A stretch of 64,000 bases of DNA from Bacteriovoracia bacterium. Its GTDB lineage: Bacteria > Bdellovibrionota > UBA1018 > CAIPTA01. Shown here one piece after another: positions 1-45,764 of the stretch (position 1 is the first letter of the stretch; each line of letters opens with the position of its first letter). The notes below the pieces were generated by a model. That model saw only the letters and a program-made list of their open reading frames with translations. It was not told where the DNA came from and did not search any database. Location: positions 155,743 to 219,742 of the forward strand of contig JBFWVL010000006.1 of assembly GCA_050246755.1 (NCBI GenBank), written 5' to 3'. Position numbers and translations under genes: made by a program.

Positions 1-104
1 AAGCGCGTATTCAAGAAATGGAACAAAAATATCCGGGCCTTCCCAAAATCGAGATTTTAAAAAAACTCGCCTTTGGGGATACGGAAGAAAGGAGGGCTGC
101 ATAG
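1..104 (+). CDS. 3' end of an upstream ICE gene (possibly VirB4-like ATPase), partial
   Basis: Open frame ARIQEMEQKYPGLPKIEILKKLAFGDTEERRAA ending TAG at 102-104; identity guessed from position only. Confidence 0.45.
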   Translation, partial: ARIQEMEQKYPGLPKIEILKKLAFGDTEERRAA

Positions 105-188: not shown

Positions 189-807
189 GCGTGCCAAGAA
201 ACGCACGCGTGTAGGTGGTTGAAATGTACCACCCTCAGAAATTGGCCATTTATCTGAGTAGCTACCATGACGGCGTAGGCCGCAAGGCGGGGAAAACCCC
301 TTCTACGTCGAAGCTCATGGGAAAATGGAGTGTTCAGGTGGCTTCGGTTTTGCTCGAAAGAGTGAGCCGTTGTCCGTCTCTGTCAGGAACACCCGCAAGT
401 ATCCAGGCCGCAACGAAAGTGAACCGCTGTCTAAGCGTCGTAACCAAAGCCAACGATCGTACAGAGTTTGTTGGTGATAGAGAGGTCGAGCCGGTCGTCT
501 CCTGGCGAAGACTAAAATCAGTGTGGAAGCAATGGTCGAATGCACACACTGGCTCTCTCGGCGTTAAGGCGGGCGGCATGGATACATACACGCATGCGCA
601 AACTTGGGATCTCCCTAGCGGTCCTAGTAGCACAATCCAGTGCGACTGGGAAGTCCGACGTATAAGCACACAGTGCGAAAGCGAAGGAAACGCCGTTTTA
701 GGGAAGTCGGATGAGGCAATAGTAGTGATGATGCCGAGGACATTACAACCTCGGCGGAGCGAAGTGCCTCTGCTTTTGAATACGTTTCCTCAAAGAAAGG
801 GGGATGC

Positions 808-2139
808 ATGATTGTCCAAAAGACTGAAAACGTGCGTGAGCGAAAGCTCACCAAGTCCCGCCTTCTGCAAAGGAAACTTTATTGTGCGGCCAAGGCCGAC
901 GGAAATCGTCGCTTTGGCATTCTGTTCGATAAGGTCTACCGCTGGGACATCCTGGAAGTGGCTTGGAAAATGATCCGAGCCAACCGGGGTGCATCCGGCA
1001 TAGACCGGCAGTCCTTCGATGACATCGAAACGTATGGTGTCGAGAAGTTCTTGCGGGAACTCCAAGAAGAGTTGCAATCGGGGAAATACCGTCCACAGCC
1101 AGTGCGACGAGTGATGATCCCGAAGGCCAATGGCAAATCGCGTCCGCTGGGAATCCCCACGATCAAAGATCGTGTGGCCCAAATGGCTGTGAAACTTGTC
1201 ATTGAGCCGCTCTTCGAAGCAGACTTTCAAGACTTCTCGTATGGGTTCCGTCCTCAACGGAGCGCCCACCAAGCAATCAAAGAGGTACGCAAGTACATCA
1301 ACTTTGGTTGCGAACATGTCATCGAAGTGGATCTTAAGTCCTTCTTCGACAGCATACCGCAGGACAAGCTGATGGATTTAGTTGCGCGTCGGATCTCTGA
1401 TCCGCGCGTGCTGAAGATCATCAAGAGCTGGTTAACTGCGGGTGTTGCGACAGAAGCCGGAATTACTCGCTCGGTGATTGGGACTCCGCAGGGAGGTGTG
1501 ATCTCGCCGTTACTGGCCAACATCTTCTTGAATGAGTTGGATCGTGAGTGGAGCAAACGGGATTATGCAACTCGCAAGTGCGATGCGCATTTAGTCCGCT
1601 ACGCCGACGACATGGTCGTCGCGTGTAAGTGGCGCCCGGAGTTCTACTACAAACAACTCATCGAGATCTTGAACACTCTTGGGGTGGAGGTCAACGCGGA
1701 GAAAACCCGCGTTGTACACGCGAGCGAGGGATTTGACTTTCTCGGCATTCATTTCAGGTTGGCCCCGTCTTATGCGGGCAAGATGAATTGCTATTACTGG
1801 CCATCACACAAGTCGGTTACGAACTTCAAGAAAACGATTCGCGAAATGGTGAACAACCGTTGCGCCGTCGATTTTGAGAAGATCATCGTGGCCGTCAATC
1901 CTGTGATCAGAGGCTGGGGCAATTACTTCGCCATCACGAATGCCGGAAAGTGCATGTGGGACTTAGATCGTTTTATCTGTGAGCGGTTTAACCGCGTTAT
2001 CGCACGGGCCCGTAAGGTCCGTGGAGCTCATCAATCCGTTATGAGTGCAAAAGTTTTGTACGAACAATTTGGATTGATTGATCTTTACGGCCTAGCGAAG
2101 AAGGAGGCTGAATGCCGCACAATGAATTTCAATCGGTAA
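808..2139 (+). CDS. ltrA: Group II intron reverse transcriptase/maturase
   Basis: NRGASGID, RPLGIPTIKDR, SYGFRP, GTPQGGVISPLLANI, YADD, FDFLG, NPVIRGWGNYF motifs; 443 aa with no HNH domain. Confidence 0.96.
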   Translation: MIVQKTENVRERKLTKSRLLQRKLYCAAKADGNRRFGILFDKVYRWDILEVAWKMIRANRGASGIDRQSFDDIETYGVEKFLRELQEELQSGKYRPQPVRRVMIPKANGKSRPLGIPTIKDRVAQMAVKLVIEPLFEADFQDFSYGFRPQRSAHQAIKEVRKYINFGCEHVIEVDLKSFFDSIPQDKLMDLVARRISDPRVLKIIKSWLTAGVATEAGITRSVIGTPQGGVISPLLANIFLNELDREWSKRDYATRKCDAHLVRYADDMVVACKWRPEFYYKQLIEILNTLGVEVNAEKTRVVHASEGFDFLGIHFRLAPSYAGKMNCYYWPSHKSVTNFKKTIREMVNNRCAVDFEKIIVAVNPVIRGWGNYFAITNAGKCMWDLDRFICERFNRVIARARKVRGAHQSVMSAKVLYEQFGLIDLYGLAKKEAECRTMNFNR

Positions 2140-2286
2140 GCCGTATGAAGGAAAACTTCACGTACGGTTTGACGGGAAGGGATTGGAAATCTGTCTACGA
2201 TTTGGTTAATAAGTCACTCCGCAACCGAAAGGGCGGAGCAACAGGATACCAAGTCTACGAGATAAGGCGCCAATTCTTTACCCTAC
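2138..2286 (+). ncRNA. Group II intron catalytic domain V and extended domain VI
   Basis: AGC triad and CGTACGG stem; GGGAAGGGATTGG pairs with CCAATTCTTT(A)CCC; terminal AC. Confidence 0.9.
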
Positions 2287-2885
2287 TGGCGGTGCTCACT
2301 CAGATTCTCGCCGAGAGCATCAAGCAGTATTACCAGCTTAAAGAAATCATCGGCCAGGGCCGCGATCAGGCGGATTTTTTGCGAAACCTCAATTCCGGTA
2401 TTGAAAATTCAATCGGCCTTTTGCAATCGCTCCCCGTAAGGGATGAAAAAATCCTCGCCGAGCTGCGGGAATTTCAAGGGGCACTGAAAACCATTTCGGA
2501 CGTTTATGGGATTATCCCTAAGAGCCGCGAGGCGACCATGCAGGCCCTTCACGATCAAACGATTGCGGAGAGCCTTCGCATGATTACTTCGTTTAAGGAG
2601 TATTCAGAAAAGCAGGAGGAAAACTCCATCATGATCGCGGTGCAGAGCCGGGAGGCGTCGCCCAAGGGAGCGGCCCGGATGCAGGCCGAGACAAGCGCGG
2701 AGATTCTGCGCAGCCTCTCGCAGCTCATTCGGCTAAATACGCAGATGCTCAAGATGCAAAGTGAGCAATTTGCCATGCACAACAAAATGGGTAAAGACAG
2801 CGTGGGGAATTTTCAGCGTGTGAATCAAGACCTGGGCCGCAGCTTCCAGGGCTTCAAGTCGGAAATGGGACTCGTTAAATTCTAG
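2287..2885 (+). CDS. Exon 2 of VirB5/TrbJ-like transfer protein (spliced product about 228 aa)
   Basis: Helical Gln-rich sequence (AVLTQILAESIKQYYQL...ASPKGAARMQA) directly upstream of a VirB6-like gene. Confidence 0.75.
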
Positions 2886-3875
2886 GTGTTCGACTACCTC
2901 CCCGAAGTGGGAAGGCAGCTCCGGGGCGAGCTGATCGGGGTATATTGGACCTTGCTCGTCCCGTTTGTTGTACTTCTGATTATCCTGGAATTTTTCAAAG
3001 AAGAACCGCCAAACGTAAGAGAGATTTTTCGCAGAGTCGTTATTTCGATTATCATGCTCTATTCGTTTGATTACGTTATCAGCGCGATTGCCTTGGTTGG
3101 TGACGGGATCACGGAACGGATCGACGGGATTCAAAAGCTCTGGGACGTGATGAAAAATCTAGGGCCGAATTACAACAATTCAACCGGCGACTGGTTTAGC
3201 CTAAGAGAAACTGCCATCTACTTTTTCGGTATCGCGGCCTATATCATTTCCTACCTTGGATTTTTTGTGGCCACGGCGTTGATTCATTTCGTGTGGACGG
3301 TTCTCTATATTTGCTCGCCCTTGATGATTCTTATGTACGTCTCGAAGGGCACGGCCTACGTCACAAAAAGCCTTTACACAGGGTTGATCCAAGTCGTGAC
3401 CTGGAAAGTGCTCTACTCGATTCTTGGGGTCTTGCTTTTGAAGCTCGCTATGAATCCGCAAGTGACCGGCATGGAGGATTACCTTATGTCGATCATCATA
3501 AACTTGTGCATTGGGGTTTCAATGCTCTTTATCCCGTTCGCTACAAAATCGTTCCTCAATGATGGATTGCAAGGCGCGGCCTCCGCACTTGCGGCAGTGC
3601 CGACAATGGCGGCGGGTGTAGCAATCAAGGGTGCGGCATTGGCTGCGAGTAAGAAGCTCGCCGCGAAAGGCATGGCAGCAGGCAATTTCTTAAGCCTTCC
3701 TGCGCAGAACTGGACCGGAGCCAAGATCGACAAGATGCGAGCGCGGTTTAGCCCTGCTATCGCAAAAGCACAGAACATGAAGCAGCAATGGAAAGATTTG
3801 GGACTAGCGACAAGAACAAATGCCTTTGGGCATAGTGAAAAAATAAGGAGAAATAGAGATAGAAGCAAAAAATGA
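2886..3875 (+). CDS. VirB6/TrbL-like polytopic inner-membrane T4SS protein
   Basis: 5-6 hydrophobic segments, SPLMIL motif, Ala/Gly-rich basic tail; GTG start abutting the upstream stop. Confidence 0.7.
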   Translation: MFDYLPEVGRQLRGELIGVYWTLLVPFVVLLIILEFFKEEPPNVREIFRRVVISIIMLYSFDYVISAIALVGDGITERIDGIQKLWDVMKNLGPNYNNSTGDWFSLRETAIYFFGIAAYIISYLGFFVATALIHFVWTVLYICSPLMILMYVSKGTAYVTKSLYTGLIQVVTWKVLYSILGVLLLKLAMNPQVTGMEDYLMSIIINLCIGVSMLFIPFATKSFLNDGLQGAASALAAVPTMAAGVAIKGAALAASKKLAAKGMAAGNFLSLPAQNWTGAKIDKMRARFSPAIAKAQNMKQQWKDLGLATRTNAFGHSEKIRRNRDRSKK

Positions 3876-4455
3876 GGAAAGAAAGCCCGTTGACCAGTGG
3901 CTTGCACTCAATCAAATGCTGCACCTTCACCGCGCCTTGAATTTCGTGGCGGGTGGCGTGGTCGCGGTGTTGATTGGAGTGATCGTAATGATGGCTTTCC
4001 AATCGCCGCTGGTGATTTTGACGAGCAGCCAGGAAAAGCATTACTACCAAACGGAAAGAAAGCCCGACACCATCACGGAAAAGGACGTGGAGAATTTTGT
4101 CCGTGATTTTTTGGAACAGCTTTTTACCTGGGACGATCTTGCGCCGGAGGTGATTCTAAAGCGGGTTACGCCGCTTGTGACCTCCGGCCTGCTTGATCGC
4201 ATACGGCAAGAGCTGATCCAGAAAACGCAGAAGGACTTTAAGGGAAAAACCCTTTCGCAAGAGATCGTGGGCGTGAAAATCCAAGTCACGCCCAAGGAGG
4301 TGATTGCTTCCTTTGACAAGGTTTTGAAGATTAACGGCGTGTCGCTCGTGATCCCCACGCAAATGGCGTTTAACATCATTGGCGGCGGCTCTACCCGGTG
4401 GAATCCGATGGGCCTTTACGTCAACGGCCTCACCGAGCACGAAGGTCGGAATTAG
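3859..4455 (+). CDS. VirB8/TraE-like bitopic T4SS protein (start ATA 3859 or ATG 3916)
   Basis: Single TM then VENFVRDFLEQLFTW and C-terminal RWNPMGLYV, typical of VirB8 folds; AAGGAG 8 nt before ATA 3859. Confidence 0.7.
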   Translation: MEAKNEERKPVDQWLALNQMLHLHRALNFVAGGVVAVLIGVIVMMAFQSPLVILTSSQEKHYYQTERKPDTITEKDVENFVRDFLEQLFTWDDLAPEVILKRVTPLVTSGLLDRIRQELIQKTQKDFKGKTLSQEIVGVKIQVTPKEVIASFDKVLKINGVSLVIPTQMAFNIIGGGSTRWNPMGLYVNGLTEHEGRN

Positions 4456-5167
4456 TGCCCTAATTCTGGCTTTGGCCTGTCTGCTTCCTTTCAAGGCGCA
4501 GGCAGGCACGGTGCGAACGATTGGCGTAAGCGATAGCGCCATGACGCCGATTTATCTAAAACGTGGGAAATCAACCGTGCTGCGGTTTACCGACAAACCT
4601 AGAAAGGTCGTCGTTGGGAATCAGAACTATTACAGCATCGAGTTTATTGAGAACGATCTGGCAATCCAGCCGCTAGGCAGTGTGGCAACGAATCTCTTTG
4701 TCTATACGGAGAGCCGCACCTATGGGTTTTTGCTGACACCGGGGGAACGCTACGACGATTTGGTTTTTGTGCGCTGGAAGTTTTCGGGCGAAAGGATCAA
4801 GGGAAGCGAGAAGGCCCTGCCCGAAAAGGAGAGCCACCCCCATCTTTCCTTTAAGATCGGAAAGGCCTTTAAGGTCACGGTTGAGAGAGTGAAAACCCAA
4901 AGCGCCCTTGGGCTTCACCTGATTGACTGCATAGTGGAAAACACCGGAAAAGCGGAAATTGCGCTTTCAAAGGCCGCGCTTCAGGCGATGCGCCGAGGGG
5001 CCAGGCTCGATAAGCAGGAAGTGGTTTTTGAGAAGGACAAGCTAAAGCCAAAAGAAAAATCAAAGGCTCGGCTTGTCCTGAAGCTCGATAAAAAGGCCGA
5101 CTTCACTCTCGAAGGAAAATTCGGGAGTGAAAGCGGCAAGGTCATCTTGGGCCGCAAATTCCTGTGA
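4439..5167 (+). CDS. VirB9/TrbG/TraK-like periplasmic T4SS protein (probable ACG or ATT start)
   Basis: Signal peptide (M)KVGISALILALACLLPFKAQA; STVLRF...VVVGN...LAIQP...TNLFVYT pattern. Confidence 0.7.
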   Translation, partial: TKVGISALILALACLLPFKAQAGTVRTIGVSDSAMTPIYLKRGKSTVLRFTDKPRKVVVGNQNYYSIEFIENDLAIQPLGSVATNLFVYTESRTYGFLLTPGERYDDLVFVRWKFSGERIKGSEKALPEKESHPHLSFKIGKAFKVTVERVKTQSALGLHLIDCIVENTGKAEIALSKAALQAMRRGARLDKQEVVFEKDKLKPKEKSKARLVLKLDKKADFTLEGKFGSESGKVILGRKFL

Positions 5168-6129
5168 ATAAGATAAAGCAGGCTTTGCGGTTCGGTTCGA
5201 TCAAGAAATCCTTTCGCAAATTCTTTCTCGTCAAGGATGGCGGGAAAGAGGTTTTGCGCATCAAGCGTACGATGCTCGTTGTGGCGCTAGTCGTGCTCAT
5301 TGGCGTGGGCGTAACGCATATCTTTAGCGACCAAGACGATACGAGTTTTTTTGGAAAGACGGATAAGCCAATCGTGGCAAATGAGGAAGCGCCGGCCACT
5401 GATCCCAAGGCGGCGGGCACGGTCGGAAGTCTACTTAAAAACTCGGAATCAAAGGGCACAAGGAGCCGAGCGCCCCGCCGTGAAGGCGGCGGCATGAAAA
5501 TCAACTATCGCGCCAAGCAAGTTCTCGTAAGCGAGGGTGCATTTGATTCGGCTAGAACGATCCCAATGGGAACGAACCTCATCGGAAAGACGCTTACCAC
5601 GATTGACACGAGAGACGCCAATCAACTGGTTAAGGTTCTTTTGCCTTATGGCGGCCGGTTTTCTGGCGGAGGTGAGATCCCAAAAAACTCGATTGTCTTT
5701 GGACAAGTGAGCTATGGAGGAAAAGGCAAAAAGGTCTTTATCAAGTTTAGCAAAGGCATTCTCCCAAGCGGAGAGGAATTTCCTATAGAGGCGCAAGCCT
5801 TAAGCTCCGGTGATTACTCGCCCGGCGTCTCTGGCCGTTTTCACGGCAATGCGGATTTGCGGATCGCCTCTACCTTGGGGCTTACGATGGTGGCCGGTAT
5901 GAGCGACGTTTTGACCGAAAAGGAATCTCTTGGCGGGAGCGCCCTGCAATCGGGATCGGTCACGCCGAAAGCGACCATGAAGAACGCCATCATGCACGGT
6001 GTTTCTCAAGTTGCGCAATCGGAAGCGCAAAGACAGGCCGAAGAGATCGGCAACGAGCAGGAATATGTCACGGTGGATGCTGGGACGGATTTGATCGTGA
6101 GCCTTTTGAGGGCTTTTGTTGAGCAGTGA
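5164..6129 (+). CDS. VirB10/TrbI-like T4SS core protein
   Basis: N-terminal TM, flexible linker, IPMGTNLIG..., EIPKNSIVFG and C-terminal VTVDAGTDLIV motifs. Confidence 0.75.
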   Translation: MNKIKQALRFGSIKKSFRKFFLVKDGGKEVLRIKRTMLVVALVVLIGVGVTHIFSDQDDTSFFGKTDKPIVANEEAPATDPKAAGTVGSLLKNSESKGTRSRAPRREGGGMKINYRAKQVLVSEGAFDSARTIPMGTNLIGKTLTTIDTRDANQLVKVLLPYGGRFSGGGEIPKNSIVFGQVSYGGKGKKVFIKFSKGILPSGEEFPIEAQALSSGDYSPGVSGRFHGNADLRIASTLGLTMVAGMSDVLTEKESLGGSALQSGSVTPKATMKNAIMHGVSQVAQSEAQRQAEEIGNEQEYVTVDAGTDLIVSLLRAFVEQ

Positions 6130-7627
6130 ACGCCCCAAGAATAGCGGAAACAAGAATTTAGAAAATCTGGTGATTGGCCTGGGCAAGATCGCCTGGGGCA
6201 TTTCGCGGATTTGCTGGCACGGGTTTAGCCGGACGATGTTTAAGAAAGTAGAGGGATGCCTTTCCTTCCTGCTCCTTGCCCTGGTGCCTCTTGTGCTCGT
6301 GTATTGGGATTGGGCGCATCTTCACCTTCTCCATTGGATATTCCCTTCGGTCTTTTCCCTTGGCGTGGTTCGGTTTTTTGTCGTTCATGTACCTCAGTTC
6401 GTTCAGTTCTTGCTCTTGGCCGGGGCCTTGATTGTGCCCCTCGGTGTGGCGCTTGGGTTTGTTCACTTCTTTCAGGTGTTGAGGTTTCAGCGGGATTTGC
6501 GGCTGATCGACCTTAAATCCGCGACAGGAACCGAGCCGAAGGTGGTTGATGTGGAAACGCCCGAGCCATTTAAGAAGAAAATCACCCTGGCAAGCCAGGG
6601 GATCGGTCTTGACCGCTACTTGAGCAAGAAATCGGATTTGGAATCAAGTTTCGGCGCTATCGTTGAAGAAATCCATGTCTCTCCCAAAAGCCGAAAGCTC
6701 ATCGAGATTAGGCTGGCCGAGAAGGAGTTGCCAAAACTCGTTAGCTACCAAGATTGTGTTTCTGCGCTCACGGAGCCCCATTCCTTCCTCATTGGGGAAT
6801 CCTTGGGTGGCGTGATCGCGCAGACTATTCGCTCGCTTCCCCATCTTTTGATCGCGGGAACGAGCGGAAACGGGAAAAGCGTGTTCTTCAATCAGACCTT
6901 GATTAGCTTGATAAGAACCTCGCCGCATATCCAGCTCTATCTCTTGGATCTGAAGTTGGGCGTTGAAGTGAAGGCTTATAGCGGTCTTCCTAACGTGCGG
7001 ATCGCAAAAGACGCTGACGAGGCGGTTACGCTTTTGCAAGCTGTGGTGAAAGAGATGATGGCGCGGTTTACCTATTTGGAAAAATCGGGGCGCAAGCTCA
7101 TTGACCCCGTTCGTGATGGCCGGGATTTGATCGTGGTCGGCGTGGATGAGGCATCCGTGCTCTACAAGAAAAAGAATGGTGATCGGGAGGCGAACGAAGC
7201 GACCAATCGCGCCCGAGAGCTGACCGATGAAATCACGAAGCTGGGCCGAGCTGCCGGGATTCACCTGATCGCGGCCACGCAAAAGGTGACGACGAAGACC
7301 ATCGAAACCGACGTGCAAGAAAACATTGGTGGTCGCATTTGCTTTCGCGTGGGGACACTCCAGGGATCAAACACGGTGCTGGGGAATAAAATGGCTTACG
7401 AGCTTCCCGATATTAAAGGGCGAGCCATTTGGAACTGCGGGAACGACTTTATCGAAGTGCAAACGCCCTTCCTCTCTGAATCCATGATCGAAAAGGAAAT
7501 TTCTTCGATTCAGGCGGATTTTTCTTCGGGCGCACGGAAATGCCTTCAGGCAATGGTGGCGGATAAGAAAAAGGAAAGCGCGAAGGCCGATGAAGTGCAG
7601 GATCAGGTTATTGATAGTGCCACGTAA
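6116..7627 (+). CDS. FtsK/SpoIIIE (TcpA-like) membrane ATPase, probable coupling protein
   Basis: N-terminal TMs; PHLLIAGTSGNGKS (Walker A), DLKLGVE, VGVDEA (Walker B), LGRAAGIHLIAATQ. Confidence 0.88.
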   Translation: MLSSERPKNSGNKNLENLVIGLGKIAWGISRICWHGFSRTMFKKVEGCLSFLLLALVPLVLVYWDWAHLHLLHWIFPSVFSLGVVRFFVVHVPQFVQFLLLAGALIVPLGVALGFVHFFQVLRFQRDLRLIDLKSATGTEPKVVDVETPEPFKKKITLASQGIGLDRYLSKKSDLESSFGAIVEEIHVSPKSRKLIEIRLAEKELPKLVSYQDCVSALTEPHSFLIGESLGGVIAQTIRSLPHLLIAGTSGNGKSVFFNQTLISLIRTSPHIQLYLLDLKLGVEVKAYSGLPNVRIAKDADEAVTLLQAVVKEMMARFTYLEKSGRKLIDPVRDGRDLIVVGVDEASVLYKKKNGDREANEATNRARELTDEITKLGRAAGIHLIAATQKVTTKTIETDVQENIGGRICFRVGTLQGSNTVLGNKMAYELPDIKGRAIWNCGNDFIEVQTPFLSESMIEKEISSIQADFSSGARKCLQAMVADKKKESAKADEVQDQVIDSAT

Positions 7628-7630
7628 TCC

Positions 7631-8386
7631 GTGAGGCGAAGCAAAAAGCGGATCGTGCTAGTCGAGCGGGATAGGCTGCTTTTTACCAGGATTTTCGAGA
7701 ATCGGGTCATGTCTGCCGCGCAGATCGAGACGGAGTTTTTTTCTAGTGTGGCACGGCAGACTTTCGCCGCTCGCCTATTAAAGCTCACCCGTTATGGATT
7801 TCTGGATAGGAAAGTTGTGTCGCCTTTAGATGCCAAGAGCTATGCGGTGTATTCCATAACGCCGAAGGCGCTTGCGGTCGTAAAGGCGCGGTATCCTTTT
7901 CGGATCGTAAAGGACTATTGCAAGAGTGATTCCGTGGAGCATGACGTGGAGTTGGTAAACGTGCGAAATCGCCTTCGGGCGCTCCGCTCGGTAGCCGCCC
8001 ACTATACAGAGAATATGCTTCAGGCTTGCGAGGATTTCACTAACACGGATTCCTTGGCGGCGTTTAAGAAACAAAACACGGATGCGGCTCTGGCGATTAG
8101 GAAGAACGGAAAAATTACGGTTGTGGGTCTTGAATTTGAGAGAAGCGAAAAGGCTTTCGGTCGTTATACCAAAAAGCTCTTTAGCTATTACGCCGATTCA
8201 AGCACGGCGGTCGTTTTCTACGTTTGCCGAAGTCTTGCCATTCAACGGGTGGTCGCCCGCGCTGAGGCTTCCATTATGGGATCAAACCGCCCGCGCTGCT
8301 TCTATGCTCTTTTGGAGAATGTGCTGAAGCAGAGCGAGAAATGTACATTCAAGAATCTTAAAGGAGACACCATTACACTCGATTAA
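7631..8386 (+). CDS. Replication-relaxation (Replic_Relax / MOB-L-like) protein, candidate relaxase
   Basis: N-terminal wHTH (ERDRLLF...AAQI...RLLKL...GFL), EHD motif, PD-(D/E)XK-like D...LEFERSEK...RY; homologous to 46393-47184. Confidence 0.7.
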   Translation: MRRSKKRIVLVERDRLLFTRIFENRVMSAAQIETEFFSSVARQTFAARLLKLTRYGFLDRKVVSPLDAKSYAVYSITPKALAVVKARYPFRIVKDYCKSDSVEHDVELVNVRNRLRALRSVAAHYTENMLQACEDFTNTDSLAAFKKQNTDAALAIRKNGKITVVGLEFERSEKAFGRYTKKLFSYYADSSTAVVFYVCRSLAIQRVVARAEASIMGSNRPRCFYALLENVLKQSEKCTFKNLKGDTITLD

Positions 8387-8390
8387 ATGC

Positions 8391-8459
8391 TGTAAGTGGC
8401 CGCTTGCAAGTCTCCTGCTGGGCTCCTGCAACGGCAGGAGCCCTAAACTTGTAAGTGGT
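8391..8459. repeat. Inverted plus direct repeat cluster, candidate oriT
   Basis: Perfect 10-bp hairpin GGGCTCCTGC-AACG-GCAGGAGCCC (8420-8443) without a T-tail, flanked by TGTAAGTGG at 8391 and 8450. Confidence 0.45.
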
Positions 8460-8559
8460 TGGAATCAGGGGGTCGAAAAATGAATTTTAAAATGGAGTAT
8501 AGGGTTATGAGGATTTTGGTTTTTGTGACGAATGACGATGGAAAAACGAGGGAGAACGT

Positions 8560-9018
8560 ATAGAAAAAATCGTAAGGATAGTGCTCGTCTGTGCGATGGG
8601 CATGGCGGCGGGATGCGCAACAATGAAGCAATCCCTGGTTACGGGTATTGGAGCGGGAGCCGTGACGGGATTGGTATTAGGTCCGGCTGTAAACCATTCG
8701 GGATCAAACGCAAGGCTTGGCGGCGCTTTGATCGGCGCTGCTTTTGGCGGGCTCGCTGCGTATTTCATCCATGACGGGATCGAGGCCCGCGACGCTCGCA
8801 TAAGGAAAGAAACGCTGTTCAATCTGGACAAGTTCAACGTGTCGCGCCCGAGTAGTGGCGGCATGGAATCCGAATACGGACTTGCGACCCCGAATATCGA
8901 AACACAGTGTTTTGATACTGAAGTGCGCGGAAACAGGTTGGTTCAGGCGCATTGTGAATCGCGGATCATCGGAAGCCCCGAGTGGGTGAAAGGGCGAAAG
9001 AAAAAGGCCAGTGAGTAA
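8560..9018 (+). CDS. Glycine-zipper lipoprotein, TraV/VirB7-like (probable ATA start)
   Basis: GAGGGAG then ATA 8560 gives (M)EKIVRIVLVCAMGMAAG-C lipobox; GIGAGAVTG/GGALIGAAFGG zipper; C-terminal G.RLVQAH...IIG..EW resembles TraV. Confidence 0.6.
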   Translation: MEKIVRIVLVCAMGMAAGCATMKQSLVTGIGAGAVTGLVLGPAVNHSGSNARLGGALIGAAFGGLAAYFIHDGIEARDARIRKETLFNLDKFNVSRPSSGGMESEYGLATPNIETQCFDTEVRGNRLVQAHCESRIIGSPEWVKGRKKKASE

Positions 9019-9358
9019 CGAGCTGCGGATTGTGCTTACCGGCCCGGCCAAGGAAGCCCACGACAAAATGTTGGAGGAAGCACGGAATGGAAAGACCAGC
9101 ATTAACTCGTCAAGGCTGATTAACTGGATCGTGGCCGACTACTTCGCCCGGTATTTCCTGAAGCGCAAGGAGGCCCTTTGCAAAGCCCATTTTAACGAGC
9201 GTAAACACCTCCTGGAAGCCATGAAGATTGAAGACCCGGAGCAACGGCGGCGTGCGATTCAGGAGGCAGCGCGAAATCTTGGTCGAAGTCGTCTGCGACG
9301 AAAAAATGCGCCGCTCACCGCACAGGAAAACGGTGCGACGAATGACGAAATTTCTTGA
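9011..9358 (+). CDS. Small basic ICE protein, possible DNA-binding accessory factor
   Basis: 115-aa ORF overlapping the upstream stop; helical and basic. Confidence 0.6.
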   Translation: MSNELRIVLTGPAKEAHDKMLEEARNGKTSINSSRLINWIVADYFARYFLKRKEALCKAHFNERKHLLEAMKIEDPEQRRRAIQEAARNLGRSRLRRKNAPLTAQENGATNDEIS

Positions 9359-9391: not shown

Positions 9392-9643
9392 ATGAAGGAA
9401 TCGGAACGAACAGTAAAAAAAATTAGGGATGGGCTCCTCGATGAGCTGAATCAGGAAGTCGAAAACCGTTTCGGTAGCAATAAAGCTAAAGCCGCCGAAG
9501 CGGTTGCCATGAACCGGATTCAGTTTACGAATCTTTGTAACGAGAAGGTGGGAGCCACGATAGATAAGTTAATTCAGATTGGCGCAACACTCGGTTGGAA
9601 GATTGAGCTAACCGTCAATCGAAAGCCAGGAGACAAAAAGTAG
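9392..9643 (+). CDS. XRE/Cro-type HTH transcriptional regulator
   Basis: KAKAAEAVAMNRIQFTNLCN...TIDKLIQIGATLGWKIELTV pattern. Confidence 0.75.
   Translation: MKESERTVKKIRDGLLDELNQEVENRFGSNKAKAAEAVAMNRIQFTNLCNEKVGATIDKLIQIGATLGWKIELTVNRKPGDKK

Positions 9644-9905: not shown

Positions 9906-9916
<11 letters not shown>
9686..9916 (+). CDS. Small basic protein overlapping the recombinase start (possible directionality factor)
   Basis: 76-aa ORF in a position typical of small genes preceding large serine recombinases. Confidence 0.45.
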
Positions 9917-11762
<1,846 letters not shown>

Positions 11763-15534: not shown

Positions 15535-17643
15535 ATGCTCAATAAGAAAATTACCGTAAGCTGTGATTTCGGCGGACGCCCAATCACGATCGAAACCGGC
15601 CGTATGGCCAAGCAAGCCAACGGCTCCGTAGTGGTGACGTACGGCGAAACCGTAGTGCTCGTGACCGCCACGGGCTCCAAAAAACCCAAGCCGGGACAAA
15701 GTTTCTTTCCCCTCACCGTAGACTATATCGAGAAATACTACGCGGCCGGTAAATTCCCCGGCGGCTTTTTCAAGCGCGAAACCCGGCCCAGCAATGATGC
15801 CGTGCTCACTTCCCGTATCATTGACCGCCCGATCCGCCCTCTTTTCCCGGAAGGTTACTTGAACGATGTGCACGTGGTGGCCACCGTCCTCTCGGTGGAC
15901 ACTGAGAACGATCCCGATATCGCCGCTTCGCTTGGCGCTTCAGCCGCGCTTTCGCTCTCCGATATTCCTTTCGCCGGCCCTACGGCCGCCGTGCGCGTAG
16001 GCCGCGTAAAGGGCAGAATCGTGATCAACCCCACGATGGCGCAGCAGAAAGAGTCCGATATCGAAGTGGTGGTTACCGGCACTGAAAAAGCCATCATGAT
16101 GGTGGAGGGCGGCGCCCAGGAAGTTTCCGAAGCCGATTTGCTCGAGGCCATCCTCGAAGGCCATCGCGCCATCCAGCCCCTGATCGCCATGCAGCGGAAG
16201 CTGCAAGCCGAACACGGCAAAGCCAAAATTGAATTCGTTCCCGCCGCGATCGACGAAAGCCTCAAGAAGGCAATCGGCGCTTTTTCGGGCCAGGTTACCG
16301 AGGCGTTCGCGATTCGCGAAAAAGCGCTTCGCTACGGTGCGCTCAGCAAAGTGGGCGAAGAGGCCATGCTGAAGGCCCTCGCGGGCGTTCCTGAGGCGGA
16401 ATTGGCCGCGAAGAAAAAAGAAGCCGAAGGCCACTTTGAGAACCTGAAGTACAGCGTAATGCGCGAGATGGTGCTCACGGGCAAGCGTCTCGATGGCCGC
16501 CCCCTTACCCAAGTTCGTGAGATCGAATGTGAAGCCGGCGTTCTGCCTAAGGTTCACGGCTCGAGCTTGTTTACCCGCGGTGAAACCCAGGTTCTCTGCG
16601 TGGTTACCCTCGGTACCAAAGACGACGAACAGCTCTACGATCCTCTCCGCGCTCCCCAGAGCTCGAAGAAGTTCATGCTGCACTATAACTTCCCTCCCTT
16701 CTCGGTGGGTGAAGCTGGTTTCATGCGTGCCCCCGGCCGCCGCGAAGTAGGTCACGGGGCTCTCGCCGAACGCGCTATCGAAGCGATGATTCCGGACGCC
16801 ACGAAGTTCCCGTATACCACTCGCTTGGTATGCGAAACGCTCGAGTCGAACGGTTCCTCCTCCATGGGCTCGGTTTGCTCCGCTTCCATGGCGCTGATGG
16901 ATGCCGGCGTTCCTTTCCCGAAACCAGTAGCGGGTATCGCCATGGGTCTCGTGAAAGAGGGCAGCCGCGTGGCGGTTCTCTCCGATATCTTGGGCGACGA
17001 AGATCACTTGGGCGATATGGACTTCAAGGTAGCCGGAACCAAAGACGGCGTAACCGCGATCCAGATGGATATTAAGATTGAAGGCGTGGACGAGAACATC
17101 ATGCGTACCGCCCTCAAGCAGGCGTTCGATGGACGTATTCATATCCTCGGCGAAATGGCCAAGGCGATCAATACTCCTCGTTCCGACATCAACAAGAACG
17201 CTCCCCGCATTATCACCATGACCATCAAGCAGGATAAGATTCGCGAAGTAATCGGCTCGGGTGGTAAAGTAATCCGCGGAATCATCGAGAGCACCGGCGC
17301 GAAGATCGACATCAACGACGACGGCGTGATCAATATCGCTTCCTCCGATCTCGAGGCGGCTCGCAAGGCCGTGGCGATGATCGAATCCATCGTGGAAGAA
17401 GTGGAAATCGGCAAGGTTTATACCGGTAAAGTTCGCAAGATCATGGATTTCGGCGCTTTCGTGGAAGTAACTCCCGGAAACGACGGCCTCCTTCACATTT
17501 CCGAGATTTCGAACGAGCGCGTGATGAAAGTTACCGACGTTCTGAAAGAAGGCGACGTGATCGACGTGAAGGTTCTCGATATCGACCGTCAGGGCAAAAT
17601 GCGCTTATCCCGTAAAGTGCTCCTCGGCGCTCCCAAAACCTAG
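15535..17643 (+). CDS. pnp: Polyribonucleotide nucleotidyltransferase
   Basis: FFPLTVDY, FTRGETQ, ESNGSSSM, DHLGDMDFKVAG, KH and S1 domains; follows rpsO. Confidence 0.98.
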   Translation: MLNKKITVSCDFGGRPITIETGRMAKQANGSVVVTYGETVVLVTATGSKKPKPGQSFFPLTVDYIEKYYAAGKFPGGFFKRETRPSNDAVLTSRIIDRPIRPLFPEGYLNDVHVVATVLSVDTENDPDIAASLGASAALSLSDIPFAGPTAAVRVGRVKGRIVINPTMAQQKESDIEVVVTGTEKAIMMVEGGAQEVSEADLLEAILEGHRAIQPLIAMQRKLQAEHGKAKIEFVPAAIDESLKKAIGAFSGQVTEAFAIREKALRYGALSKVGEEAMLKALAGVPEAELAAKKKEAEGHFENLKYSVMREMVLTGKRLDGRPLTQVREIECEAGVLPKVHGSSLFTRGETQVLCVVTLGTKDDEQLYDPLRAPQSSKKFMLHYNFPPFSVGEAGFMRAPGRREVGHGALAERAIEAMIPDATKFPYTTRLVCETLESNGSSSMGSVCSASMALMDAGVPFPKPVAGIAMGLVKEGSRVAVLSDILGDEDHLGDMDFKVAGTKDGVTAIQMDIKIEGVDENIMRTALKQAFDGRIHILGEMAKAINTPRSDINKNAPRIITMTIKQDKIREVIGSGGKVIRGIIESTGAKIDINDDGVINIASSDLEAARKAVAMIESIVEEVEIGKVYTGKVRKIMDFGAFVEVTPGNDGLLHISEISNERVMKVTDVLKEGDVIDVKVLDIDRQGKMRLSRKVLLGAPKT

Positions 17644-17663
17644 TTCGGGTCCTTGACGAAAAT

Positions 17664-17703
17664 AAGGGCGTGGTCACCTCGGTGACTGCGCCTTTTTCTT
17701 TTT
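17664..17703 (+). terminator. Rho-independent terminator of rpsO-pnp
   Basis: AAGGGCGTGGTCACC-TC-GGTGACTGCGCCTTT followed by a T-run. Confidence 0.85.
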
Positions 17704-17787
17704 AAGTTCACTACTTAGCAGCTTTATAAATGATTTCAATTTCTATCCGCCGTGATGTATACCAGTCCGGCCCTGGGAGGGATCATC

Positions 17788-18426
17788 ATGAAATTCATCG
17801 TTTTATCGTTGTTCACAATCGCAATATTTTCCGTTCCGGCCTTCGCCGAAACTGGAAGCTTCATTAAACTACTCGACGGGAAATTCGCGGTTTGCGAAGG
17901 CGAAAAGAATCTGGGCCGCGGAGCTTACCTTCCTAACGGCTTATCCACCAAGGCAGACGGTGGCGCTCTTTCCATAGTATTCGTGCTTCAGCATTTAAGG
18001 TGCGAGCAGCTCGGTAACGCATTCGTTTGGATGCCCTCCGCGCACCCTCTTGATCCCGTGGCCGACAAAGATATTTACGATCGCCCGATTTTAGTGAAGC
18101 GTGCCAATTCCGAAGCGGTACTGTCGCGCGGAGCCGACGCCGCAATCTTGAGCACGGTTGCGCTCGAAGATTCCGCGGAGCAATCGATCGATTTTGGATT
18201 CAGTCTCGAGCAGCTGCTCAGCCCGGCGGAACTCGGTGCCCTGGATTCCGGCGACGCCGTCGACGCCAAGGCCACGTTTTTCGTGCGCGGAGATATCTCG
18301 GTGCAGACCCATACGGGCGAAACCGTGGTGCTCGGGCGCCGGGCCGGCGGGGCCTATACGATCCTCCTTACGATGAAAAAGGCCGATTCCGGCCAAGTTC
18401 AGGTGACGAACCTGCAACTGAAATAG
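17788..18426 (+). CDS. Secreted hypothetical protein
   Basis: GGAGG SD, signal peptide MKFIVLSLFTIAIFSVPAFA, two Cys. Confidence 0.75.
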   Translation: MKFIVLSLFTIAIFSVPAFAETGSFIKLLDGKFAVCEGEKNLGRGAYLPNGLSTKADGGALSIVFVLQHLRCEQLGNAFVWMPSAHPLDPVADKDIYDRPILVKRANSEAVLSRGADAAILSTVALEDSAEQSIDFGFSLEQLLSPAELGALDSGDAVDAKATFFVRGDISVQTHTGETVVLGRRAGGAYTILLTMKKADSGQVQVTNLQLK

Positions 18427-18499
18427 CCAAGCTTCTCCGGTTACCAGGTATTGGCGCTCGCGCATTGCTCAGTGCTTTGCGCATCCGCTACAATATTCC

Positions 18500-19783
18500 A
18501 TGGCGAAGAAGAATTTTTACCAGCGAAGCGTGCTTCAGAACGGTGTGGTGCTGCTTACCGAGCGGGCCGCTAATTTCAAAAGTCTATCGATCGGCGTGTG
18601 GGTAAAGGGAGGCTCGCGGCACGAGTCGCCTTCCCAGGCGGGCATGGCGCATTTTCTAGAGCACATGATGTTCAAGGGCACCGGCAAGCGCACCGCGCTC
18701 GATATTGCCCGCGACGTGGATCTGGTAGGCGGTGATTTCAACGCCATGACCACGCGGGAATATACTTGTTTCCATCTTACCTTGCCTCATAAAGAAGCCG
18801 ATTTCGCCCTCGATTTACTTACGGATATTTTGAAGGATTCGCGTTTTGATCCGGTGGAGCTCGAGCGCGAGCGCCTCGTGGTGCTCCAGGAATTCGCGAT
18901 GGTGGAAGAGAGCCCGGAGGAATGGGTGCACGAAGTGCTGTTCGATAAAGCTTTCGGCCGCCACCCGCTGGGTCGCCCGATCCTTGGCACCGAGGCCGTG
19001 CTGAAGTCCTTCACGCGCGAAGACGTAAAGAAGTATTTCGAGCAGCATTACTTCAGTAAAAATATCGTGATCACAATGGCGGGAGACCTGCGCCACGATG
19101 TGGTGGAGCGCAAGCTCAATAAGTTGCTGGGAAAATTTCGCGGCAAGAAACGCCCGATTCCCTCGGGCAGCATGCGGAAGCCTAAGTTCCATCCCGGCGT
19201 TCACCTTATCCGCCGCGATACCGATCAGGCCCACATCACGCTGGCCTGCGAAAGCTATCCTATCGACCATAAAAATCGTTTAGCCGCGTTTTTGCTCAAC
19301 GCCTACCTTGGCGGGAACATGAGCTCGGTGCTTTGGCAGGAGATCCGCGAGAAGCGCGGGTTCGCCTACACCGTCTATTCTTCGCTCGCCCATTTCAGTG
19401 ATACGGGCCTTCTCGGTATGTACGTGGCTACCAGCCCCAAGCAAGTGCCCGAGTGCTTGCAGCTGATTCGCGAGCAGCTGCAAAAGTTAGTGAGCGCGCC
19501 GATCGACGAGCGCGATCTCCAGATCGCCAAAAACAGCGTAAAGAGCGCCGTGTTGATGGGCAGTGATTCGATGGAAGCGCGGATGTATACGCTGGCCAAG
19601 AGCGAGCTGTTTTATCCAAATCAGGTGAGCGACGAGGAGATCTGCAGGATGATCGACCAAGTTACCGCACTCGACCTGTGGCGTGTTGCCCGTGAGCTGT
19701 TTGGTCGGGATCGTTGGTTGATCGTGGCTCTCGGAAAACTGAACAAGAGCGTACTTACTAAGAATTTTCTGAAGAGTAAGTGA
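18500..19783 (+). CDS. M16 (pitrilysin-family) zinc peptidase
   Basis: GMAHFLEHMMFKGT inverted Zn motif, IREKRGFAY; usual neighbour of pnp. Confidence 0.93.
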   Translation: MAKKNFYQRSVLQNGVVLLTERAANFKSLSIGVWVKGGSRHESPSQAGMAHFLEHMMFKGTGKRTALDIARDVDLVGGDFNAMTTREYTCFHLTLPHKEADFALDLLTDILKDSRFDPVELERERLVVLQEFAMVEESPEEWVHEVLFDKAFGRHPLGRPILGTEAVLKSFTREDVKKYFEQHYFSKNIVITMAGDLRHDVVERKLNKLLGKFRGKKRPIPSGSMRKPKFHPGVHLIRRDTDQAHITLACESYPIDHKNRLAAFLLNAYLGGNMSSVLWQEIREKRGFAYTVYSSLAHFSDTGLLGMYVATSPKQVPECLQLIREQLQKLVSAPIDERDLQIAKNSVKSAVLMGSDSMEARMYTLAKSELFYPNQVSDEEICRMIDQVTALDLWRVARELFGRDRWLIVALGKLNKSVLTKNFLKSK

Positions 19784-19877
19784 CGCAACCGGATTCGTTG
19801 ATCGTCTTACAGAACAAATGCAAAAGCTGACACCGTTTTTAGTTGCAGGGAAGTGGGAAGCCTTTAGCATTAGAACT

Positions 19878-20372
19878 ATGAAAAGGACTTTCTGTCTCTT
19901 GGCCACGATGGCCTTTTTCGCCATCCCCGAGCAAGGCCACGCGAAAGCCTCTCCCCTCAAGCAAGTACGCCTGGAATATATCCAAACTTATGTGGAAGAA
20001 GCCGCGGCCAAAGAAAGGCTGGAGCCCACTTTGCTGAGCGCGATTATCCGCGTGGAGTCGAATTTCAATCATAAGGCCGTCTCGCCGGTGGGAGCGAAGG
20101 GGCTGATGCAGCTCATGCCTTTTACCGCTAAGGGCTTAGGAAAAGATAAGGCCCTGGATTCGCGGAATCCGCGCGCGAATATTTTGGCCGGGGCCCACTA
20201 CTTGCGGGGCCTGATCAACCAGTTTCAGGGTGACCTGCGCTTGGCTGTGGCGGCCTATAACGCCGGCCCCAATGCCGTGCTCCGGCATGGCGGGATTCCT
20301 CCTTACCGTGAGACCCAAAACTACGTAACGAAGGTAATGGGGGAATGGGAGAAGTTAAGGCTGGCTCAGTAA
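19878..20372 (+). CDS. Lytic transglycosylase (SLT domain), secreted
   Basis: IRVESNF, GAKGLMQLMP, AAYNAGP, ETQNYV. Confidence 0.93.
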   Translation: MKRTFCLLATMAFFAIPEQGHAKASPLKQVRLEYIQTYVEEAAAKERLEPTLLSAIIRVESNFNHKAVSPVGAKGLMQLMPFTAKGLGKDKALDSRNPRANILAGAHYLRGLINQFQGDLRLAVAAYNAGPNAVLRHGGIPPYRETQNYVTKVMGEWEKLRLAQ

Positions 20373-22535: not shown

Positions 22536-22581
22536 TTGCCCTAATCATAATGGAAAGACGGGTTTGCGTCGACAGCGGCGA

Positions 22582-24219: not shown

Positions 24220-24226
24220 GGCTATC

Positions 24227-24254
24227 TTATCGGCCGAATTTCGTTAGGGATTTA
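24227..24254 (-). promoter_or_regulatory. Sigma28 (FliA)-type promoter
   Basis: TAAA-N16-GCCGATAA, perfect FliA -10 box, just upstream of the CDS start at 24219. Confidence 0.75.
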
Positions 24255-24266
24255 GTTTTTCAGCGC

Positions 24267-25808: not shown

Positions 25809-25853
25809 AAAAGGCCCTTCCAGGCCATAAAGCATACTATTATAGTATACTAC

Positions 25854-25881
25854 TGTTCGGCTTTTCGAACAAAAGCCTTGA
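25854..25881 (-). promoter_or_regulatory. Sigma28-type promoter
   Basis: TCAA-N16-GCCGAACA. Confidence 0.6.
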
Positions 25882-25927
25882 GAGGCGAATTGGGTGTAAT
25901 GTATTGAATTTTCAGTATTTTTTTATA

Positions 25928-27388: not shown

Positions 27389-27396
27389 CAATGTCC

Positions 27397-28962: not shown

Positions 28963-29008
28963 ACCCGTATCCTCCCAAGTCCCAGAAACAGTTCCCCGAA
29001 CAAATCCC

Positions 29009-32364: not shown

Positions 32365-32374
32365 CCTAGGGTTC

Positions 32375-32402
32375 TTATCGGACAAAACTGCTCGGATATT
32401 TA
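32375..32402 (-). promoter_or_regulatory. Sigma28-type promoter heading the array
   Basis: TAAA-N16-TCCGATAA. Confidence 0.7.
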
Positions 32403-45614: not shown

Positions 45615-45690
45615 GCCCAGATAGCTCAGTCGGTAGAGCAACGCCCTGAAAAGGCGTGTGTCGGCAGTTCGATTCTGTCTCTGGGCACCA
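45615..45690 (+). tRNA. tRNA-Phe(GAA)
   Basis: 76-nt cloverleaf; anticodon arm ACGCC-CTGAAAA-GGCGT; CCA end. Confidence 0.97.
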
Positions 45691-45732
45691 TTATCAAACT
45701 TTAATCCCAAAAATTTAAATAGTTAGCTTGGC

Positions 45733-45764
45733 GACCGCCGACATTTTATGTCGGTGGTGTCGGC
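45733..45764. repeat. 32-bp motif 43 nt after the tRNA-Phe CCA (copy 1)
   Basis: GACCGCCGACATTTTATGTCGGTGGTGTCGGC; internal inverted repeat; 25/32 identical to 54767-54798. Confidence 0.7.

Follow-up and report, generated by a model that had tools for sequence, protein, structure and literature searches.

A candidate compact integrative and conjugative element of Bdellovibrionota with an FtsK/TcpA-like ATPase in the position of VirD4

The 64,000-nucleotide stretch of contig JBFWVL010000006.1 analysed here (assembly GCA_050246755.1, Bacteriovoracia bacterium; hereafter the window) carries on its plus strand, from position 1 to 11.8 kb, a single tightly packed chain of genes that is interpreted as part of an ICE (integrative and conjugative element). 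Genes resembling the core of a diderm type IV secretion system (T4SS) are followed in this chain by the gene for an FtsK/TcpA-like ATPase and then by that for a protein of the Replic_Relax family. The chain is considered, with moderate confidence, to belong to a compact ICE of the Bdellovibrionota whose VirD4 would have been replaced by the FtsK/TcpA-like pump; the elements of two relatives measure about 13-15 kb. An earlier reading of the window, made from the sequence alone (the sequence-only reading), had proposed such a hybrid; its succession of a diderm core, an FtsK/TcpA-like ATPase and a Replic_Relax protein is retained here, while its MOB_L-like label gives way to MOB_C and its TraV-like label finds no support.

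The ATPase matches the FtsK/SpoIIIE family PF01580 with an E-value of 2.3e-22 (80 bits, the cut-off being 24) and its translation contains the strings DLKLGVE and GRAAGIH, as had been reported when an FtsK-family ATPase was proposed to stand here instead of VirD4. The Walker A motif (G248..G251.GKS255) and the Walker B residues D344-E345 are invariant in 36 ATPase sequences, and hydrophobic segments at residues 42-125 (Kyte-Doolittle >1.6, a crude method) would provide the protein with an N-terminal membrane anchor. Pfam searches with the protein returned no match to T4SS-DNA_transf, TrwB or TraG-D_C, and neither an FtsK gamma domain nor a TraB-like recognition domain was detected in it by Pfam and NCBIfam scans. 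Its top matches among the solved structures are the entries 6o1w-6o1z, described as 'DNA translocase coupling protein' (E 4e-26), and FtsK (2e-19), with no TrwB among the matches at E<=1e-3. The structure of TcpA from pCW3 is listed as '6OZ1' in PMC12857230, which we infer to denote the 6o1z-group entry. BLASTP comparisons gave 124-125 bits for two FtsK-like proteins of Bacillus plasmids, 117 for a Tcp protein of Enterocloster (E. bolteae), 102 for pCW3 TcpA, 98 for a Thermoanaerobacterium protein, 77 for the Escherichia coli FtsK motor, 60 for a Streptomyces TraB-like protein and 25 for TrwB, the last over the Walker A region only. In a quick maximum-likelihood tree the Bdellovibrionota ATPases form one clade (SH-aLRT 96), with no settled order among this clade, the Tcp proteins, the Firmicutes FtsK-like proteins that accompany Replic_Relax and the FtsK/TraB proteins. 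By these sequence comparisons the ATPase falls on the FtsK/TcpA/TraB side of the superfamily, clearly apart from VirD4; it may be termed TcpA-like by its position and not by a placement within the TcpA clade.

A search of species-representative genomes for related loci, with aligned VirB6-like proteins as the query, gave 53 loci, which were taken with up to 10 kb of flank; all are in metagenome-assembled genomes. The ATPase is also present in a Halobacteriovorax isolate. Forty-nine are labelled Bdellovibrionota, three Pseudomonadota and one 'bacterium' only, in agreement with the Bdellovibrionota-like host lineage previously suggested for the window. The 5' part of the elements reads small sigma-70-region-4-like regulator, 112-amino-acid (aa) protein, TrbC/VirB2 pilin, VirB3/TraL-like protein and VirB4, and the 3' part reads VirB5, VirB6, VirB8, VirB9, VirB10, FtsK-like ATPase, Replic_Relax, lipoprotein, small open reading frames (ORFs) and recombinase. 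The order from VirB4 through VirB5, VirB6, VirB8, VirB9, VirB10 and the FtsK-like ATPase to the relaxase candidate is constant in all 37 loci that hold all these genes. The FtsK-like gene begins no more than 700 nt 3' of VirB10 in 42 of the 43 loci with at least 1.6 kb of downstream sequence, five small ORFs intervening in the exception (L050), and Replic_Relax follows it directly in 42 of 43, the exception (L032) being a decayed copy. The slot after VirB10 that VirD4 occupies in VirB/D4 operons is thus held by the FtsK/TcpA-like ATPase, which makes this protein a candidate coupling protein.

The window contains about half to two thirds of the element, namely its right-hand part, and the left part, from within VirB4 onward, lies beyond the window edge. 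A VirD4 or a relaxase of the MOB_F, MOB_P or MOB_H type farther upstream, a possibility raised by the sequence-only reading, was therefore sought in the relatives, in which the upstream region shows the pilin, the VirB3-like protein, VirB4 and small regulators. The elements at two loci, L014 and L021, are flanked left and right by conventional cellular genes, which gives them a length of about 13-15 kb, and no other ATPase or relaxase occurs within them. Searches for the VirD4/TraG/TrwB, HUH-relaxase and VirB11 families found no member in 73 ORFs (all ORFs of four loci), none in 123 further non-core ORFs of at least 250 aa (E<=1e-8) and none in two giant ORFs that were scanned separately. The non-core ORFs of this length number 147 in all loci and 138 after removal of redundancy, 13 of which were already among the 73; several of the scanned non-core ORFs are without any family match.

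The protein encoded directly 3' of the ATPase was correctly assigned to Replic_Relax in the earlier reading: it matches PF13814 with 27.3 bits, just above the cut-off of 25.3, and the match recurs at E<=0.01 in 31 of the 38 aligned family members (best 1.1e-12). A precomputed PF13814 domain is present in nine of its 45 close homologs, and the family comprises 403 cluster representatives at E<=1e-30. In the predicted structure (predicted local distance difference test, pLDDT, 95) a winged helix at the N-terminus is joined to an alpha/beta domain; over residues ~5-100, both the family profile and Foldseek match the winged helix to PadR/MarR-type regulators. S99, H104, D105, E127, N128, D151 and E168 are invariant in the family and K174 is nearly so, with H104, D105, E127, D151, E168 and K174 placed on the alpha/beta core of the model. 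H104 is the lone invariant histidine and no HxH motif occurs in the family alignment, which bears out the earlier description of the protein as non-HUH. A MOB_L identity, which had also been suggested, was considered and rejected on the same ground, MOB_L being a family with a three-histidine (3H) motif whose member RelLS20 of pLS20 was identified by its HUH/3-histidine motif (PMC5313138). Replic_Relax PF13814 corresponds instead to MOB_C, the class under which CONJscan recognises PF13814 proteins according to PMC5357655. MOB_C enzymes are described in PMC12857230 as PD-(D/E)XK-like, with a winged helix, and as occurring in both Gram-negative and Gram-positive hosts.

Just 3' of the relaxase-candidate gene, a perfect 10-bp inverted repeat (8420-8429 and 8434-8443) is flanked by 9-nt direct repeats. 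Stems of at least 8 bp, differing in sequence, lie 27-46 nt past the relaxase stop codon in eight of the 39 intergenic regions compared. The repeat at 8420-8443 could be an oriT (origin of transfer) element and could equally be a terminator.

The labels of the T4SS core genes, given in the sequence-only reading as VirB5, VirB6, VirB8, VirB9 and VirB10, differ in strength. VirB10/TrbI is firm, with 39.6 bits to PF03743 against a cut-off of 35 and matches above the cut-off in all 12 relatives scanned. The VirB9-like protein shows three weak but concordant matches, to CagX (E 2.3e-5, under the cut-off), to TIGR02781 (E 1.9e-6) and, by its family profile against solved structures, to TrwF/VirB9 of R388 as the best hit (E 0.02); CagX reaches E<=0.01 in ten of 12 relatives and exceeds its cut-off in none of them. 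The VirB8-like protein has no Pfam match in the window and its family profile gave nothing significant against the sequences of solved structures. Its AlphaFold model (pLDDT 89.2) has TrwG, VirB8, CagV, PrgL, TraE and DotI as top Foldseek matches (E about 1e-4, target TM 0.6-0.79) and its atlas neighbours carry TraE/VirB8, which together suggest a VirB8-like fold on somewhat weaker evidence than that for VirB10. For the VirB6-like protein, which has no Pfam match in the window, the sole support is a match to TrbL (PF04610), below the cut-off, in three of 12 relatives. The VirB5-like protein is without a Pfam match in the window and in all 12 relatives, and its family profile found nothing significant among the solved structures (best E 0.34); its position, the signal peptide of the intact homologs and its language-model atlas neighbours, which are named TrbJ (PF07996 in 19% of one cluster), make the VirB5 label a lead only.

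The 34 codons of VirB4 in the window are 57-71% identical to the C-terminus of VirB4 homologs of 800-914 aa from seven loci. These homologs lie under every curated subfamily cut-off, the nearest model being the TraC-F-type TIGR02746 (265-316 bits, cut-off 567), and they score 178-198 bits against the cut-off of 643 for TIGR00929 (VirB4_CagE), while PF19044 and PF11130 are matched. F-specific Pfam families (TraF, TraH, TraN, TraU and TraW) were not found in the elements. The TraV-like gene of the earlier reading finds no support; the only lipoprotein present, encoded 3' of the relaxase gene in most loci, matches glycine-zipper families alone. Apart from the VirB5-like gene, every ORF of the element that the window shows is intact. 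Ratios of nonsynonymous to synonymous substitution (dN/dS) between the window and its nearest relative, L001, are 0.03-0.15 in the nine genes compared, rough values as dS is saturated, and by these ratios the nine genes appear to be under purifying selection.

The element carries an integrase, a large serine recombinase, at one end, overlapping the tRNA-Arg(tct) gene, the probable right-hand attachment site, an arrangement expected of an ICE. The final 160 bases of the recombinase gene overlap the tRNA gene on the opposite strand, and the next genes beyond it are dapF, a sigma factor gene and that for PNPase; the right end of the element is therefore placed at tRNA-Arg. A tRNA or transfer-messenger RNA (tmRNA) gene lies at the 3' end of the recombinase gene in 18 of the 24 loci with a serine recombinase, and in some relatives a tyrosine integrase takes the place of the latter. 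The recombinase ORF crosses the 3' end of an opposite-strand gene for tRNA-Arg, -Pro, -Met, -Ala or -Asp or for tmRNA; the coordinates of the recombinase and of the RNA gene are 16924-18771 and 18689-18765 in L014, 17545-19278 and 19232-19602 in L021, 16522-18330 and 18236-18311 in L038, and 18606-20369 and 20324-20689 in L027. The recombinase ends are exact in these four loci and were computed from ORF start plus length in the others. Given this overlap, the attachment site appears to lie inside the recombinase gene. Islands with a serine recombinase at the tmRNA gene are described for Dehalococcoides in PMC3146451.

A direct repeat of the tRNA 3' end was sought in the left flanks of 18 loci, ten of which gave no match of at least 10 nt, seven gave matches of 10-12 nt, at chance level, and one (L053) gave a 16-nt match. 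This exact repeat (853-868 and 19456-19471) joins the tRNA-Pro 3' region to a radical-SAM ORF 18.6 kb upstream, and if it marked the left end, a gene for a sigma-54 activator would fall inside that element. Genes for a sigma-54 activator/response regulator lie upstream of the transfer genes, in either orientation, in at least 12 loci, including L010, L014, L015, L020, L021, L023, L027, L035, L039, L040, L043 and L053, in many cases accompanied by genes for a histidine kinase and a family-5 solute-binding protein. These neighbours may be cargo of the element, a regulator carried by it or its favoured surroundings.

Each part of the system has counterparts elsewhere. TcpA of pCW3 and its homologs in Tn916 and ICEBs1 are likewise FtsK/SpoIIIE ATPases of about 500 aa that have an N-terminal anchor, stand in for VirD4 and are encoded next to the relaxase, whereas the identity of the window ATPase to TcpA is only about 29%. 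Tcp systems are monoderm T4SSs with MOB_T or MOB_M relaxases, according to PMC3548315 and PMC12857230, and TcpM adjoins TcpA in a Tcp locus that was inspected. The present element differs in its VirB8-, VirB9- and VirB10-like genes and its PF13814 protein, and does not conform to the monoderm mating-pair formation type MPF_FA. A parallel in gene arrangement is found in phage-like plasmids of Firmicutes and in Bacillus phages, which share the FtsK-like gene followed directly by a PF13814 gene and provide the top BLASTP scores. Of the six best plasmid matches of the ATPase that were inspected, three are pairs of an FtsK-like protein and Replic_Relax, two are Tcp conjugation loci and one is Streptomyces TraB-like; the pairs, an FtsK-like gene and then one for a 'replication-relaxation family protein', come from phage-like or plasmid records of Bacillus luti, Bacillus sp. 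and Thermoanaerobacterium. The Firmicutes Replic_Relax partners match PF13814 above its cut-off but are shorter (181-186 aa), and their detectable likeness to the Bdellovibrionota family is limited to the shared Pfam match. Among the Bacillus phages, 0305phi8-36, SPO1 and the Gamma group carry the counterpart as a 'DNA translocation operon', in which a relaxase related to MobC of CloDF13 was described in 2012 next to a translocase that PMC3357382 likens to VirD4/TraG and not to FtsK.

With the MOB_C proteins TraX of pAD1 and MobC of CloDF13, the candidate relaxase shares the non-HUH character, an N-terminal winged helix and conserved acidic residues in the C-terminal part. The window protein, however, is barely over the Pfam cut-off, and it was likened to TraX and MobC by their descriptions and not by their sequences. 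Streptococcal mobilizable elements are reported to combine PF13814 relaxases with VirD4 and never with TcpA (PMC5357655). The core itself resembles MPF_T and R388: the order VirB2-VirB3-VirB4-VirB5-VirB6-VirB8-VirB9-VirB10 is the same, and both have a TrbC pilin, a VirB8 fold and a TrbI domain, but no VirB1, VirB7, VirB11 or VirD4 was found and the VirB4_CagE cut-off is missed. With MPF_F there is a likeness in VirB4, nearest to the TraC-F-type model yet under its cut-off. The closest plasmid relatives of this VirB4 (~25% identical), on Myxococcus pYRE and on Thermus plasmids, are both near annotated VirD4-type genes. Given this VirD4 beside the nearest plasmid VirB4 and the FtsK-Replic_Relax cassette in Firmicutes, replacement of VirD4 and its relaxase by the cassette would be the simplest history, the direction of change being unproven.

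In the mechanism envisaged, the serine recombinase would cut the element out of the 3' end of tRNA-Arg, and the Replic_Relax protein would bind and nick oriT, possibly in the hairpin region just 3' of its own gene. A hexamer of the FtsK-like ATPase, seated on the inner-membrane platform in substitution for VirD4, would then pump the DNA into the VirB channel, and a tRNA or tmRNA gene of the recipient would be the site at which the recombinase integrates the element. In this scheme coupling by the ATPase, nicking by the Replic_Relax protein, the oriT and the replacement of VirD4 are all deduced from the anatomy of the element.

Several observations weigh against the scheme. The assignment of the window protein as a relaxase is weak when this sequence is taken by itself: Foldseek returns winged-helix regulators together with weak matches to YaeQ, FokI and MspJI, which do not establish a nuclease fold; the NCBIfam model NF041423 (MobC_subf) gives 23.1 bits against a cut-off of 200; a tblastn search of 72,556 plasmids with the relaxase candidate returned no match at E<=1; and alignment of its family with the Bacillus Replic_Relax partner by hhalign is not significant (probability 0.24%). 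The coupling role of the ATPase is suggested by its gene position and its homology to TcpA, and the quick tree, with its few references and long branches, does not nest the Bdellovibrionota clade within TcpA. Of the four plasmid proteins closest to the ATPase, three come from phage-like or plasmid records that show no annotated T4SS gene in the 7-13 kb viewed, and the comparable phage operon was dispensable in the laboratory according to PMC3357382. The left part of the element lies beyond the window edge and the flanks of the relatives end at 10 kb, so that a VirD4 farther off is possible; the left boundaries of the relatives are not fixed, because membership of the sigma-54 and histidine-kinase genes in the elements is unsettled.

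Two alternative explanations concern the role of the ATPase and of Replic_Relax. In one, the window would belong to an ordinary VirB/D4 ICE whose unseen left part carries a canonical VirD4 and an HUH relaxase, and replication, partition or maintenance of the excised circle would be the task of the FtsK-like and Replic_Relax proteins. The cut inside VirB4, the name 'replication-relaxation' of PF13814 and the Firmicutes pairs in stretches lacking an annotated T4SS gene would fit this explanation; it is nevertheless considered clearly unlikely, as cellular genes stand 2-3 kb upstream of the pilin gene in L014 and L021, with neither VirD4 nor an HUH relaxase there, as neither family was found in the flank ORFs of at least 250 aa and as the FtsK-like gene fills the VirD4 slot in 42 of 43 loci. 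In the other, the FtsK-like pump would move double-stranded DNA in the manner of Streptomyces TraB, the VirB proteins would form just a pilus, a cell contact and an outer-membrane conduit, and Replic_Relax would act as a loader or recognition factor and not as a strand-specific nickase. The VirB-type channels known so far are described as conveying single-stranded DNA with a relaxase, and this weighs against double-stranded transfer, as do the lack of a detected FtsK gamma or TraB-like recognition domain and the invariant acidic and histidine residues of the Replic_Relax family, which are nuclease-like. The grouping of the ATPase on the FtsK/TcpA/TraB side and not with VirD4 speaks for it, and PMC12857230 relates a proposal that Tcp moves double-stranded DNA and states that no covalent DNA adduct was observed for the MOB_C protein TraX; transfer of double-stranded DNA is thus regarded as unlikely but worth keeping in view.

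Two further explanations concern the fate of the whole gene block. A non-conjugative T4SS that secretes proteins or DNA, for example during predation, with recombinase and relaxase-like genes contributed by a neighbouring mobile module, would suit the predatory hosts, the strong divergence of VirB5 and VirB6 and the cargo found between VirB4 and VirB5 in some loci. It is held to be very unlikely, for the block moves together with its recombinase to different tRNA and tmRNA genes across genomes, several copies occur in one chromosome and the relaxase-like gene is kept in 42 of 43 loci. Decay of the window element into a remnant that no longer transfers is given hardly any weight: the intron that interrupts the VirB5-like gene and the clear degradation of L032, L044 and L045 might be read in this way, whereas the other ORFs of the element are intact in the window, the dN/dS values are low (0.03-0.15) and an intact maturase with intron domains 5-6 means that splicing could restore the gene. 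An FtsK/TcpA-like pump in place of VirD4 within a transferring element stays the preferred reading.

TcpA-type coupling proteins were said in the sequence-only reading to be described mainly in Firmicutes, and the reviews concur in confining them to a subset of MPF_FA (PMC12857230, PMC4027160 and PMC3548315). Firmicutes are stated to be the only hosts of TcpA homologs (PMC3548315), replacement of VirD4 by TcpA is described for a sub-class of MPF_FA alone (PMC4027160), and the VirD4 family is said to include the coupling proteins of all Gram-negative T4SSs (PMC12857230, December 2025). No published description of this element family was found in a literature search that was thin on subscription journals, and an earlier report is possible. 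The parts are known, and it is their combination with an outer-membrane core and the wide spread within one phylum that appear to be undescribed. A bolder reading, given slightly less than even odds, would make these phylum-wide Bdellovibrionota ICEs the first diderm T4SS conjugation machines that work without VirD4, formed by grafting a cassette of FtsK/TcpA-like pump and MOB_C-like nuclease, shared with phages and plasmids of Firmicutes, onto VirB2-VirB10. If this were true, monoderm and diderm systems could exchange the coupling and DNA-processing module, and a T4SS that spans the outer membrane could be fed by an FtsK-type motor, perhaps one capable of handling double-stranded DNA.

A functional family of this kind would bear on the docking of coupling proteins on VirB10/VirB4 platforms, on ICE-detection rules that tie the type of coupling protein (T4CP) to the MPF type, and on estimates of gene flow in predatory bacteria and in an under-sampled phylum. 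CONJscan presumably represents VirD4-type proteins by the profile t4cp2 and TcpA by the separate profile tcpA. At 13-15 kb, the elements would rank among the smaller self-transmissible diderm elements and would make an attractive minimal model. If functional, the family would also supply a counter-example with an outer-membrane core to the near-universal VirD4 (PMC4027160 and PMC12857230).

The features of the element in the window are collected in the table below. The product of the small gene that follows the lipoprotein gene gave no Pfam match in the window or in the 12 relatives scanned.

Table. Features of the candidate element in the window, with coordinates from the first base of the window.
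Feature	Coordinates	Strand	Basis or remark
VirB4/TraC-like ATPase gene, 3' end (34 codons)	3..104	+	Remainder beyond window edge
VirB5/TrbJ-like exon 1, signal peptide, uncertain start codon	101..209	+	Frame reads ..KIGLVLALFIGGQPARADLFGGD..
Group II intron	207..2286	+	5' end +/- few bases; 3' end fixed at 2286
Intron reverse transcriptase/maturase	808..2139	+	TIGR04416, RVT_1, GIIM
VirB5/TrbJ-like exon 2	2287..2885	+	Position between VirB4 and VirB6; conserved family alignment
VirB6/TrbL-like polytopic membrane protein	2886..3875	+	320 homologs; sub-cut-off TrbL in relatives
VirB8/TraE-like protein, N-terminal helix and NTF2-like domain	3916..4455	+	AlphaFold and Foldseek
VirB9-like outer-membrane core protein	4379..5167	+	CagX, TIGR02781; real start probably 3' of 4379
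VirB10/TrbI-like core protein	5164..6129	+	PF03743 above cut-off
FtsK/TcpA-like ATPase, membrane anchor, candidate coupling protein	6116..7627	+	PF01580
Replic_Relax (MOB_C-like) protein, candidate relaxase	7631..8386	+	PF13814
10-bp perfect inverted repeat and 9-nt direct repeats, candidate oriT element or terminator	8391..8458	.	Sequence
Conserved glycine-zipper lipoprotein, possible VirB7-type anchor	8581..9018	+	Glycine-zipper families, E ~7e-4
Conserved small protein	9011..9358	+	Homologs in many loci; no Pfam match
Small helix-turn-helix protein	9392..9643	+	HTH_37 weak in window; E 1.8e-13 in L021 homolog
Large serine recombinase (integrase)	9906..11762	+	Resolvase E 4e-34, Recombinase, Zn_ribbon_recom
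tRNA-Arg(tct), right-hand attachment site	11603..11679	-	ARAGORN; Rfam tRNA 75.8 bits

The VirB5-like gene is split after its signal peptide by a group II intron, and position 2287 is the first base 3' of this intron. The assignment follows from the co-occurrence of a reverse transcriptase/maturase (TIGR04416, E 4e-128, 427.5 bits against a cut-off of 300) with intron domains 5-6, matched by RF00029 at 2136-2286 (46.3 bits, cut-off 40); domains 1-4 are matched by RF02003 at 212-418 with 44.5 bits, under the cut-off of 49. Position 2287 could be joined in frame to an exon ending at 188, 206 or 209, and the junction has the sequence ..A(D)LFGG-DVAVL.. in intact homologs. As the maturase and domains 5-6 are intact, splicing could restore the VirB5-like gene. 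The closest relative, L001 (1-54), has the same intron 3' end and junction, its contig ending within the intron.

The junction between VirB4 and VirB5, at which the intron of the window is also found, is a hot spot of insertion (L025, L026, L039, L047, L049 and L052), the cargo including methyltransferases, an aminotransferase, an LD-carboxypeptidase, a leucine-rich-repeat protein and a DNA methylase. Further insertions occur after VirB6 in L046 and within VirB10 in L043. One Oligoflexales chromosome, OZ244057.1, carries five copies of the element (L032, L038, L042, L044 and L045), with the defence genes AbiE and DNA methylases in their left flanks. Two of the copies are decayed, L032 having a split ATPase and no relaxase and L044 consisting of fragments only, and in L045 both the ATPase and the recombinase are split.

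A second, smaller island lies beside tRNA-Phe at 45615-49435, in a low-GC stretch located at about 46-57 kb in the window. It encodes a 157-aa ORF, a 391-aa protein, a small resolvase-type serine recombinase (48605-49435) and a second Replic_Relax protein (46393-47184; PF13814, 29.8 bits), the last of which is aligned by hhalign to the relaxase-candidate family of the ICE with a probability of 99.3% (E 3e-20). No FtsK-like or T4SS gene is present in this island, which may be a mobilizable element that uses the machinery of the ICE. Elsewhere in the window, at 21237-32385 on the minus strand, seven consecutive ORFs of 432-606 aa with signal-peptide-like N-termini are found in a region of strongly negative AT skew; they gave no Pfam match at E<=1e-6. 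Two of them (27397-28962 and 29009-30565) are clearly paralogous, with 39% identity over 203 aa, and a second pair shares a match of 31 residues only.

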